DNA of 64,000 nucleotides from Escherichia coli (GCF_003334785.1 NZ_QOWV01000003.1), one strand, 5' to 3'. Positions 14,362 to 18,207 are shown, numbered from the stretch's first letter. The notes: a model not told the origin generated them from the letters alone. Numbers and translations: made by a program.

Positions 14362-14571
14362 ATGAATAAAGATGAAGCCGGCGGTAACTGGAAACAGTTT
14401 AAAGGTAAAGTGAAAGAGCAATGGGGCAAACTGACCGATGATGATATGACGATCATTGAAGGTAAACGTGATCAACTGGTCGGTAAAATCCAGGAACGTT
14501 ATGGTTATCAGAAAGATCAGGCAGAAAAAGAGGTCGTGGATTGGGAAACCCGCAATGAATATCGCTGGTAA
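14362..14571 (+). CDS. yjbJ: small stress-induced protein YjbJ (CsbD-like)
   Basis: ORF 14356-14571; start placed at ATG 14362 (MNKDEAGGNWKQFKGKVKEQWGKLTDDD...) giving 69 aa. Confidence 0.85.
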   Translation: MNKDEAGGNWKQFKGKVKEQWGKLTDDDMTIIEGKRDQLVGKIQERYGYQKDQAEKEVVDWETRNEYRW

Positions 14572-14612
14572 TTAATCCCTCCTGCCCGACGTGTACAAGG
14601 ATGTACGCCCTC

Positions 14613-15128
14613 TTAACGCGGTTTCTTTTTCACCTGCACAGAGTGATCATGCTGGCACTGTTCAGGATGACGACACGCTTCCACTTCTACACATGCCGCA
14701 CAGAGCCCATGTGCTTCAATCACATTATGCCGCAGGGCAAACCCCATTTTTGCCGCCAGCGTATGCATAATGTCTTCCACGCCTTCTGCACACTCTTCTT
14801 TCACTGCGCCGCAGCGATCGCAAATAAACATGGCTGACGTATGGGTGGGCTGATCGAACAGATGACAGAGCACATAACTGTTGGTGGATTCCACCTTATG
14901 CACAAAACCTTGCTCAAGCAGAAAATCCAGCGCGCGATAAACCGTTGGCGGCTTGGCTTGCGGTTCAGCTTCGCGCAGTAAATCAAGCAGATCATAAGCG
15001 CTGATAGCGCCATCCTGCAGACTCATCAGGCGCAACACTTCCAGGCGCTGTGGGGTCAGGCGCACATTACGCTGCGCGCAGATTTTTTCAGCCTGCGCTA
15101 ATAACTCCTGCGTTGTGGTCTTTTCCAT
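14613..15128 (-). CDS. zur: zinc uptake regulator (Fur family)
   Basis: ORF 14613-15188; start placed at internal ATG (MEKTTTQELLAQAEKICAQRNVRLTPQRLEVLRLM...) giving 171 aa; Cys-rich metal-binding motifs present. Confidence 0.9.
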   Translation of the reverse strand: MEKTTTQELLAQAEKICAQRNVRLTPQRLEVLRLMSLQDGAISAYDLLDLLREAEPQAKPPTVYRALDFLLEQGFVHKVESTNSYVLCHLFDQPTHTSAMFICDRCGAVKEECAEGVEDIMHTLAAKMGFALRHNVIEAHGLCAACVEVEACRHPEQCQHDHSVQVKKKPR

Positions 15129-15445
15129 CGGGCACCTCAAAGTGGGGGTTAAGAATGTCCTTACTTTACCATGTTCCAGGAAAAACACCGAGAACCCTTA
15201 TTGTTGCCGTAATGTTGATTTTCTGTTTTGTAGGTAAGGTGTTATGTTGCCTTGTCGTACCATTATCAACACGATAATAATTAATAATTCATTTTTAAAT
15301 AAATTGCTTCAAGTTAACTCGCTATTTATTTAACTGGGTTTAAACGCATACCTGTAGTTCAGAAATTATGAGCGATTTTTGATAGTGACCAGATGGCAAA
15401 AGAATTATAAGGAGGACACGGTACGACAAAAAAGGTAGATGAATC

Positions 15446-15700
15446 ATGTTGAAGATAATACCCGGTGCAACTGGATACTTTAATAAAACACTCAATTCAA
15501 ATCAATTCGATAATGAAGATGCAATCAAAGATAAATTAGATAATAGAGGTTCAATCAAAGGTAAATTAAATAATATATATGGTAAATCTATTGATTATGC
15601 AGCGCTGCGTCATCGGGATATAATTATTGCAAAAATAGATTTGTTTATTCAACGAATCACGCATAATTTATGGCATGCACGTAAAAAAATGTGTTTTTAA
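15446..15700 (+). CDS. yjbL: uncharacterised small protein in AT-rich islet
   Basis: 84-aa [38 protein letters not shown]...; matches remembered size of YjbL; function unknown. Confidence 0.55.
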
Positions 15701-15723
15701 TTGTGCAAATAAATGATCTCAAA

Positions 15724-16431
15724 ATGTGGGTCAATAAGTATATTGACGATTGCACTGATGAGGATTTAAACGATCGTGACTTTATTGCATCAGTTGTTGA
15801 CCGGGCTATTTTTCATTTCGCGATTAATAGTATATGTAATCCTGGGGATAATAAAGATGCAATGCCCATTGAACAATGTACTTTTGATGTAGAAACTAAG
15901 AATGACCTTCCCTCCACGGTTCAGCTATTTTATGAGGAATCTAAGGATAATGAACCTTTAGCGAATATACATTTTCAAGCAATAGGTTCTGGTTTTTTAA
16001 CGTTTGTTAATGCCTGCCAGGAACATGATGACAACAGCTTAAAATTATTTGCTTCGCTGTTAATTTCACTTTCATATTCTAGTGCCTACGCAGATTTATC
16101 AGAAACAGTGTATATTAATGAAAATAATGAGAGCTACCTGAAAGCTCAGTTTGAAAAATTATCTCAACGTGATATGAAGAAGTACCTGGGAGAGATGAAG
16201 CGTCTGGCTGATGGGGGAGAAATGAATTTTGATGGCTATCTGGATAAGATGTCACATCTGGTGAATGAAGGAACGCTCGATCCTGATATTTTAAGCAAAA
16301 TGCGAGATGCTGCACCACAATTAATTAGCTTCGCGAAGTCGTTTGACCCAACCTCAAAGGAAGAGATTAAAATACTTACAGACACTTCTAAATTAATTTA
16401 TGATTTGTTCGGGGTTAAATCGGAGAAATAA
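15724..16431 (+). CDS. yjbM: uncharacterised protein in AT-rich islet
   Basis: ORF 15691-16431; start placed at ATG 15724 (MWVNKYIDDCTDEDLNDRDFIASVVD...) giving 235 aa; function unknown. Confidence 0.6.
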   Translation: MWVNKYIDDCTDEDLNDRDFIASVVDRAIFHFAINSICNPGDNKDAMPIEQCTFDVETKNDLPSTVQLFYEESKDNEPLANIHFQAIGSGFLTFVNACQEHDDNSLKLFASLLISLSYSSAYADLSETVYINENNESYLKAQFEKLSQRDMKKYLGEMKRLADGGEMNFDGYLDKMSHLVNEGTLDPDILSKMRDAAPQLISFAKSFDPTSKEEIKILTDTSKLIYDLFGVKSEK

Positions 16432-16472
16432 TATGTGAAGTTCTTCGATAGTATGGAAGGCATTATATAAAA

Positions 16473-16502
16473 GGACCCAATATTTATTGGGTTCTTTTTT
16501 CT
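16473..16502 (+). terminator. rho-independent terminator after yjbM
   Basis: aaggacccaatatttattgggttcttttttctc: hairpin acccaata/tattgggt followed by TTTTTT. Confidence 0.75.
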
Positions 16503-16838
16503 CTATCAATGCTATTAGCAGGGAGATATATCACCAGAGTTTAATGTGTGATTTTTTATTTATCGTCGAACCTGGATTGTTTATCATTGGCCTTAACAAA
16601 GTTAACGGCTAATAAGATTATTTCCATCACTTCGTGAGAGCTTCATGCCTTGAGAGGATCTCAATTTTCTTTTGCAATGAGACAGGCGCTTCCTGTTGTT
16701 ATGGTATAGTACCCCGCTATTGAGCCTCCTGAATAGTGATGCTGAATAACATAACCCCATGATATATCGATAAAATAATCTCTACATTTGAAAATGCACG
16801 GTAATTCTGAAATGCAAAAAATCAACCAAACCAGCGCA

Positions 16839-17831
16839 ATGCCTGAAAAAACTGACGTTCACTGGAGTGGTCGGTTTAGCGTTGCACCAATGCTCGACTG
16901 GACGGACAGACATTGCCGCTATTTCTTGCGTCTGCTTTCCCGCAATACGTTGCTGTATACCGAAATGGTGACCACAGGGGCGATTATTCACGGTAAAGGT
17001 GATTATCTGGCGTACAGTGAAGAAGAACATCCGGTAGCGTTGCAACTGGGCGGTAGCGATCCGGCGGCGCTGGCGCAGTGTGCAAAGCTGGCAGAAGCGC
17101 GCGGATATGATGAGATCAACCTGAATGTCGGCTGCCCGTCTGACCGGGTGCAGAACGGCATGTTTGGTGCGTGTCTGATGGGTAATGCGCAGCTGGTTGC
17201 CGACTGCGTGAAAGCGATGCGCGATGTGGTGTCGATTCCGGTGACGGTGAAAACGCGTATTGGCATCGACGACCAGGACAGCTATGAATTTCTCTGCGAT
17301 TTCATCAATACCGTTTCCGGCAAAGGCGAGTGTGAGATGTTCATCATCCACGCACGTAAAGCCTGGCTTTCGGGGTTAAGCCCGAAAGAAAACCGTGAAA
17401 TCCCGCCGCTCGATTATCCGCGTGTGTATCAACTGAAGCGTGACTTTCCGCATCTGACAATGTCGATTAACGGTGGTATCAAGTCGCTGGAAGAGGCCAA
17501 AGCACACCTGCAACATATGGATGGCGTGATGGTCGGGCGCGAGGCGTATCAGAATCCGGGTATTCTGGCGGCGGTAGACCGGGAGATCTTTGGTTCCTCG
17601 GATACCGATGCCGATCCGGTGGCGGTAGTGCGCGCCATGTATCCGTACATTGAGCGTGAACTCAGCCAGGGGACGTATCTCGGCCATATTACCCGGCATA
17701 TGTTGGGCTTGTTCCAGGGTATTCCTGGCGCGCGGCAGTGGCGGCGTTATTTAAGTGAAAATGCCCATAAAGCGGGTGCAGACATTAATGTGCTGGAACA
17801 CGCGCTCAAACTGGTGGCGGATAAGCGTTAA
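16839..17831 (+). CDS. dusA: tRNA-dihydrouridine synthase A
   Basis: ORF 16788-17831 (347 codons); in-frame ATGs at 16794 and 16839 would give 345 and 330 aa; I recall both lengths from different annotations and chose 330 aa ([29 protein letters not shown]...); Dus TIM-barrel motifs. Confidence 0.85.
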
Positions 17832-17895
17832 CTTTTCACCAAAAAGTAGTCAAATTCACCACGCCCTGCGCACCGTCGCGGGGCGTTTTGCTGTT

Positions 17896-17929
17896 AAATC
17901 AATAGATTATTTTTGGCATGATTCTTGTA
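17896..17929 (+). promoter_or_regulatory. putative sigma54 promoter with IHF-like site upstream of pspG
   Basis: IHF-like aatcaatagattat (17897-17910) followed by TGGCATGATTCTTGTA (17914-17929; GG-N10-GT, like the pspA promoter) about 35 bp before the pspG ATG. Confidence 0.5.
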
Positions 17930-17964
17930 ATGCCAGCAAGAGATTTCATATTTGGGAGAGCATC

Positions 17965-18207
17965 ATGCTGGAACTACTTTTTGTGATTGGCTTTTTTGTC
18001 ATGCTGATGGTCACCGGCGTTTCGTTGCTGGGCATTATCGCCGCGCTGGTTGTGGCGACGGCCATTATGTTCCTCGGCGGTATGCTGGCATTGATGATTA
18101 AGTTGCTGCCGTGGTTACTACTGGCGATTGCGGTGGTGTGGGTTATTAAGGCGATTAAAGCACCAAAAGTGCCGAAATATCAGCGTTATGACCGCTGGCG
18201 TTACTAA
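17965..18207 (+). CDS. pspG: phage shock protein G
   Basis: ORF 17755-18207; start placed at ATG 17965 (MLELLFVIGFFVMLMVTGVSLLGIIAALVV...) giving an 80-aa small membrane protein. Confidence 0.85.
   Translation: MLELLFVIGFFVMLMVTGVSLLGIIAALVVATAIMFLGGMLALMIKLLPWLLLAIAVVWVIKAIKAPKVPKYQRYDRWRY

Follow-up and report, generated by a model that had tools for sequence, protein, structure and literature searches.

An element-type dusA 5' end and a polymorphic DUF2713 gene between zur and dusA of Escherichia coli, a probable remnant of a dusA-specific integrative element

In Escherichia coli K-12 the genes zur and dusA are separated by AT-rich DNA, which raises the question whether this DNA was left behind by one of the integrative elements that insert into the 5' end of dusA. 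The window analysed here, a single stretch of 64,000 nucleotides (64 kb), covers the E. coli dinF-yjbJ-zur-yjbL-yjbM-dusA-pspG-qorA region and does not differ in sequence from K-12. The original prediction had read the zur-dusA interval as a decayed element of this kind, with yjbL and yjbM as surviving cargo. The AT-rich DNA is real: the GC content of positions 15196-16889 is 34.9% compared with 52-56% in the flanks. For the individual segments, 32.7% was obtained for the left arm, 34.3% for the DUF2713 coding sequence, 35.7% for the right arm and 35.4% for box plus leader; the comparison genes zur, dinF and dusA (body) showed 52.1%, 55.8% and 54.6%. The block was expected to end at 16787, but it runs into dusA up to position 16889. 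Its outer parts and flanks are the following.

14613-15128, minus strand: zur
15129-15195, no strand: zur-proximal intergenic DNA, common to the native (islet-less) haplotype (BLAST against E. coli E41-1; other Escherichia)
15196-15228, no strand: left edge of the variable block (alignment)
15229-15445, no strand: left non-coding islet arm, kept among islet alleles, without phage match
16432-16697, no strand: right non-coding islet arm, which holds the terminator
16890-17831, plus strand: native dusA body, coding for the conserved TIM-barrel enzyme (identity to E41-1, dN/dS)

A BLAST comparison with the native-type strain E41-1 matched positions 14600-15195 at 93.5%. Homology ends at 15195 and restarts at 16882, within dusA; from there onward dusA is 97% identical to E41-1, and the dusA body displays a dN/dS of ≤0.04. 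The K-12 and native haplotypes come together at ...CC(A/G)ATGCT(C/T)GAC. On the zur side, the sequence 15129-15195 is also present in other Escherichia species. The following 33 nt (15196-15228) are unlike the native spacer, yet alignment showed them to be common to HH97, a strain that has no DUF2713 gene. Among divergent islet alleles the left arm is 90-100% and the right arm 86-100% identical. The predicted own terminator was confirmed by a terminator scan, which detected a hairpin with a T-run tail at 16469-16498 on both strands.

A survey of 5426 complete E. coli genomes revealed two haplotypes. Islet DNA is present in 4303 of them, and the remaining 1123 (21%), including ST131 and O18 strains, carry instead a 133-bp native zur-dusA spacer with ≥99% identity in every case. 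These numbers add up to 5426, therefore no genome has both haplotypes, and the E. coli genomes lacking yjbLM that the original prediction had proposed for comparison do exist. In 4302 of the 4303 genomes the islet is tied to a rebuilt dusA 5' end. In some E. coli genomes, IS1A and IS200C insertions break the islet (equivalent of window positions 15446-16431).

For the ancestral state, we used 80 zur-anchored loci with one genome per species. A short spacer, with ~209 bp between the ATG of zur and the att point, was found in E. albertii, E. whittamii, Escherichia sp. E1V33 and two further Escherichia lineages, which have the native spacer, promoter and 5' coding sequence in common with native-type E. 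coli. The native dusA form consists of TGCTATAGTAGCGCCCC, then 36 nt, then an ATG and 18-19 codons ending with (H/Y)RFSIAP. It is kept across Escherichia, Citrobacter, Klebsiella, Kluyvera, Lelliottia and S. enterica Infantis, and the native-type spacer was found in most Enterobacteriaceae. Judged by these outgroups, the K-12-type block is derived and not ancestral. A presence of yjbLM in all Enterobacteriaceae, with native composition, had been named, together with the lack of an attachment-site-like repeat at the islet boundary, as the observation that would speak against a mobile origin; DUF2713 is encoded in none of the 80 species loci, and the GC content of the block differs from that of its flanks as given above.

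The right 192 nt of the block (16698-16889) have the layout of the attR end of dusA-specific integrative elements.

16698-16711, plus strand: box GTTATGGTATAGTA, an extended -10-like putative dusA promoter (uniqueness, spacing, translations, alignment)
16712-16793, plus strand: leader of 82 nt between the box and ATG 16794, of element-like length, its sequence without known relative
16794-16889, plus strand: putative element-derived replacement of the dusA 5' end, 32 codons (identity to phage copies, alignment)
16890-16897, plus strand: att core ATGCTCGA, the crossover point, where the attL junctions of prophages break

All element-type loci display a box CTATG(T/C)TATAGTA, a leader of 71-99 nt, an ATG and 32 codons up to MLDW, in contrast to the box, 36 nt and 18-19 codons of the native layout. 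Read in reverse complement, the element box gives integrase codons 2-6 (MAYYNI); at the same time it resembles an extended -10 facing dusA. In the 64-kb window the K-12 box occurs once, and 0 of 100 shuffles gave a match. Read on the minus strand, it encodes (A)GYYTI where intact elements have the integrase start MAYYNI, and it is probably a stub of the integrase 5' end; this candidate stub of 5-6 codons (16698-16715, minus strand, AGYYTI versus MAYYNI) is indistinguishable from promoter-box conservation. Native and element boxes are homologues, and the K-12 box is equally similar to the native promoter and to the phage box (16/20 each), so that its origin has to be judged from the spacing. 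The distance from box to att is 185 nt in K-12, 194-201 nt in elements and 96-99 nt in native dusA. Similarity of the K-12 leader (83 nt when counted from the end of TATAGT to the ATG) to mEp460-type phage leaders was not significant (P 0.5-0.9). As the leader has no detectable relative, the donor would have been a different lineage of the element family.

The 96 nt preceding the att core are 80-82% identical to phage copies and to the copies in S. arizonae, S. diarizonae and S. houtenae, compared with 52-57% identity to native 5' regions. Alignment with dusA-integrating elements had been suggested in the original prediction; BLAST detected ~108 nt matching window positions 16791-16899 at 82-84% in the temperate coliphages mEp460, SKA5, PhiR40_1, 1720a-02 and others. 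In free phage genomes this dusA-like segment is located ~86 nt from the divergent integrase start, i.e. at attP. Alignments of lysogens with the window break off at 16897, and their attL reads ATGCTCGAT, then AGGATG; the longer read of the junction shows ATGCTCGAT joined to AGGATGTA... Haplotype convergence and lysogen breakpoints coincide, which makes the right edge of the block the att core of dusA-specific integrases, which target the conserved 5' region of dusA where this core is located (PMC4482086). Taken together, the alignments support a K-12 dusA 5' end of element type that ends exactly at the att core, joined to the native gene at 16890-16897. The atypical composition and the absence from related strains (1123 E. 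coli genomes and the other Escherichia species examined) are likewise as in such elements.

The several in-frame start codons of dusA can be explained in the same way, because the N-terminal extension belongs to the element-borne copy. Three ATGs had been listed; those at 16794 and 16839 are present, whereas position 16788 is a TTG and the third ATG is at 16812. The dusA promoter and the first 32 codons in K-12 and in about four fifths of E. coli would then come from a mobile element and not from the ancestral gene, which bears on the annotation and cross-strain comparison of the DusA start codon, N-terminus and regulation. The locus would present a clear case of an integrative element that left a permanent, functional scar in a housekeeping gene. 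Neither PMC4482086 nor PMC13136901 presents the K-12 dusA 5' end as element-derived.

The phage copies could also be read in the opposite direction, with the K-12-type 5' end being native and copied by phages, no integration at this locus, and the AT-rich DNA an unrelated orphan gene. Phage mimics do ultimately derive from some host dusA, and the K-12 leader has no phage match. Against this stand the pan-enterobacterial native form in all other Escherichia species and in 21% of E. coli, the layout and ~80% identity that the K-12 form shares with Salmonella element copies located beside integrase relics, and the haplotype switch exactly at the att core. We strongly disfavour this explanation and consider it highly improbable.

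Several parts of an intact element are missing. The prediction that no integrase is present held: a tblastn search of positions 15000-17000 with an mEp460-type query gave a best E value of 0.04, inside the DUF2713 frame. Beyond the box, tblastn and tblastx comparisons with the E. coli 3045 prophage yielded noise instead of an integrase relic, and collinear shuffle tests gave P values of 0.17-0.99. A direct repeat of the dusA 5' end, which had been expected at the zur-proximal boundary as an attL, was not detected; only chance-level repeats of 11-13 nt occur on the zur side, and regex and fuzzy searches of 14000-18000 revealed a single att-like site. Thus neither a dusA-family integrase nor a ~21-bp attL/attR repeat pair with the original 5' end was found, and a remnant of the native 133 bp is present in 0 of the 4303 islet-bearing genomes. 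Excision is not expected in K-12, because integrase and attL are missing.

Related elements in different states of decay were found in Salmonella, Leclercia, Silvania and Intestinirhabdus. In S. houtenae and S. arizonae, STM4242 is followed in turn by the native promoter, the opening ~7 nt of native dusA (ATGCGGC), a gene for a Zn-dependent alcohol dehydrogenase, an integrase relic, box, leader, replacement 5' end and dusA. The relic of 40-50 codons reads MEYYNIEKRLKSDDEP... with stop codons after it. S. diarizonae displays the same order of alcohol dehydrogenase, relic and box; the promoter box was not detected there. This decayed dusA element is fixed in S. enterica subsp. houtenae (locus L006, 3130-5022), arizonae and diarizonae, and the best KEGG match of its alcohol dehydrogenase is a gene of an Acinetobacter plasmid. 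In Leclercia and Silvania the integrase is reduced to (M)AYYNIVN, Intestinirhabdus has kept most of it, and Escherichia sp. MOD1-EC7003 carries a fresh integration into a native-type site. K-12 stands at the end of this series as the most reduced state, with AGYYTI at the box, nothing further recognisable, and attL and native remnant lost.

The coding part of the islet is made up as follows.

15446-16431, plus strand: DUF2713 (PF10897) gene, a pseudogene in K-12 (RefSeq 'frameshifted', alignment, Pfam)
15446-15700, plus strand: yjbL, open reading frame of 84 aa
15501-15560, plus strand: 30-nt tandem repeat with a 10-aa unit (repeat search, protein alignment)
15724-16431, plus strand: yjbM, open reading frame of 235 aa from ATG 15724, or of 246 aa if started from GTG 15691

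The two predicted open reading frames of 84 and 235 aa are present; however, they are not separate genes. RefSeq describes 15446-16431 as a single frameshifted DUF2713 pseudogene, and comparison with the intact O145 allele revealed a 1-nt deletion in K-12, with one G absent between 15682 and 15683. yjbL and yjbM are the halves of one 328-aa gene, which corrects the K-12 annotation to one broken gene. The intact protein matches the Pfam PF10897 (YjbM family) model over its full length (E 6.8e-157, model positions 1-235 of 235). The model itself covers only the K-12 YjbM fragment (residues 94-328), whereas the real protein has 318-340 aa with YjbL as its N-terminus.

The gene is hypervariable. 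Alleles have a mosaic structure, and the 10-aa repeat is present in varying copy number, with protein lengths of 318-340 aa; between alleles the nucleotide identity of the coding sequence falls to 50-65%, while the arms stay at 86-100%. At least three allele classes can be distinguished, with 49-67% identical aa, dS values of 0.49-0.81 and dN/dS of 0.41-0.55, compared with a dS of 0.03-0.12 and a dN/dS of ≤0.08 for zur, dinF and the dusA body in the same strain pairs. The gene diversifies rapidly, probably by allele swapping through the conserved arms. Database clusters of DUF2713 are mostly full-length, and most strains have an intact gene; it is therefore maintained species-wide and not decaying, and it is broken only in the allele of the K-12 lineage. 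The predicted decay accordingly describes the element and the K-12 allele, not the gene as such.

All named DUF2713 homologues are from E. coli except one partial sequence labelled Klebsiella pneumoniae, and the AFDB matches include Shigella. An exhaustive profile search added only a few distant relatives of ~400 aa on short IS-rich contigs. These have a ~150-aa N-terminal extension, and their neighbours include fragments of ISL3 and mutator-type transposases, a KfrA-like gene and a pentapeptide-repeat/SopD-like protein. Searches with DUF2713 against defence-protein HMMs (PADLOC-DB 2.0) returned no family at E≤1, and neither NCBIfam nor a PDB sequence profile search gave a match. Two AlphaFold runs reached a mean pLDDT of 42 and 55, and Foldseek searches of PDB and AFDB50 returned DUF2713 members only. 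In the literature searched, DUF2713 is not mentioned, and yjbL-yjbM are listed as no more than a young operon without known function (PMC12218254). DUF2713 is specific to E. coli and diversifies unusually fast, and it deserves functional study.

Sequence divergence is not confined to the islet. For zur, dS between native-type E41-1 and islet-bearing strains is 0.18-0.24, against 0.03-0.12 among islet-bearing strains, which suggests that the haplotypes differ in the flank as well. This would fit a history in which the whole haplotype was built in another relative and entered E. coli by homologous recombination via zur and the dusA body, and the DUF2713 allele classes (dS 0.5-0.8), far older than the flanks, also suggest imports. 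However, DUF2713 was found in no other species, neither among the 80 zur-anchored loci nor in the named database matches, and such a route alters only the place of integration and not the nature of the structure. We consider it improbable.

Is the DUF2713 gene cargo of the element? Intact and half-decayed elements have their integrase and cargo in the place taken here by the DNA to the left of the box (15229-16697). By analogy of position, the gene may plausibly be surviving cargo. Neither DUF2713 nor the islet arms matched any of 50,697 phage records, and DUF2713 was found in no other dusA element. In the E. coli 3045 dusA prophage, a SLATT-domain and a reverse-transcriptase-domain protein adjoin the integrase (locus L004, 4481-8009) and a Panacea-domain protein adjoins attL (48232-48804); these three are candidate defence cargo at both ends of that prophage.

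Two kinds of apparent evidence for mobility were rejected. Matches in the plasmid database PLSDB turned out to be mislabelled chromosomal records and one small Klebsiella plasmid with a yjbL-yjbM fragment of K-12 type. This plasmid is the 17-kb NZ_CP069917.1 of Klebsiella oxytoca, and its fragment may be IS26-captured like the E. coli fragment yjbJ-zur(yjbK)-yjbL-yjbM described on Klebsiella plasmids inside an IS26-blaSHV-12 unit (PMC7319535). The phage protein families phrog_29005 (246 aa) and phrog_28007 (40 aa) were likewise dismissed as proof of a phage origin, their profile lengths being those of the K-12 YjbM and YjbL fragments. All 44 of the 44 interpretable IMG/VR contigs with the leader pattern 16712-16733 are prophage predictions that overran into the host flank; such overruns at dusA explain PHROGs 29005 and 28007, and these 'phage families' for yjbL and yjbM are border artefacts.

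One genome separates the rebuilt dusA 5' end from the DUF2713 gene. E. coli HH97 (locus L089, 5881-6098) has the rebuilt 5' end together with the K-12 leader and lacks DUF2713; at the TATAGTA box, native promoter-upstream DNA (30/33 identical) is joined to this leader. This junction was found in 1 of 5426 genomes and in no metagenome contig, and HH97 is probably a recombinant between native and element boxes. It had suggested that the box 16698-16711 is a retained native promoter and that yjbLM lie outside the element. This reading was overturned by the spacing and dropped, because alignment and spacing table place the homologous box of the elements at the same distance.

HH97 is compatible both with a single element that carried cargo and with a scar that came first and an insertion that followed. 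In the latter history the element would have been lost by box-to-box recombination, leaving an HH97-like scar, and a DUF2713 cassette would have entered later by illegitimate recombination just upstream of the box, with replacement of ~22 nt; yjbLM would never have been cargo. HH97 has exactly such a scar, including the 30/33 identity upstream of the promoter, and has no DUF2713, the gene was found in no dusA element or phage, and with its conserved arms it has the behaviour of a resident, polymorphic locus. On the other side, HH97 is a singleton without a metagenome match, a second, unexplained foreign acquisition would be needed at the very edge of the box, and the islet displays no target duplication, terminal repeats or transposase as signatures of an insertion. 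We regard this two-step history as possible, though rather unlikely.

The best explanation, and in our view a reasonably probable one, is a remnant of a dusA element at the dusA 5' end with the DUF2713 gene as its surviving cargo. The element itself is supported by the element-type 5' end at att, by the absence of the block in relatives and in 21% of E. coli, and by the parallel decayed elements. The two haplotypes with their limits, the layout of element type, the phage copies, the state in the outgroups, the single gene and its hypervariability are observed directly. From these we infer that the dusA att core of an ancestor of most E. coli lineages received a phage-like element whose tyrosine integrase belonged to the dusA-associated family (Farrugia et al. 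2015, PMC4482086), and that the element brought its own promoter box, leader and 32-codon replacement of the DusA N-terminus. Later deletions would have removed the integrase past its first few codons, the rest of the element, attL and the original dusA promoter with the 5' remnant. The surviving positions 16698-16889 would now be the everyday promoter and 5' end of dusA, and the site would still serve as attB for present-day phages. Positions 15229-16697 appear as a self-contained AT-rich unit of one 328-aa DUF2713 gene with its own terminator, for which cargo would be the simplest reading.

Going further, DUF2713 might be a conflict gene, anti-phage or effector-like, domesticated from the cargo of the dusA element and kept polymorphic by diversifying or frequency-dependent selection. 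It would then sit beside a still-active phage attachment site, and its intactness, allele classes about as old as genera, mosaicism and conserved recombination arms would all be explained. We offer this as a speculation with little probability.

Compared with known systems, the K-12 block belongs to a kind of element already described, to which it adds a new case that is highly reduced and species-wide. With dusA-specific elements and prophages (PMC4482086) such as mEp460, it shares the target, i.e. the conserved MLDW-coding stretch of dusA, an element-supplied promoter, leader and replacement N-terminus (~81-84% nucleotide identity), an atypical composition and the absence from related strains. 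Unlike these elements, the K-12 block has no integrase, attL or original 5' remnant, comprises ~1.7 kb instead of 30-60 kb, and is fixed in most of the species with a working dusA 5' end. The decayed Salmonella element is similar: it too is an islet that lacks an integrase and lies between a rebuilt dusA and the gene upstream, with the same layout of box, leader and 32 codons and a single cargo-like gene in the slot. It differs in having kept the native promoter, ~7 nt of native dusA and an integrase relic of 40-50 codons, and its cargo is a Zn-dependent alcohol dehydrogenase gene of normal GC content, whereas K-12 carries an AT-rich orphan.
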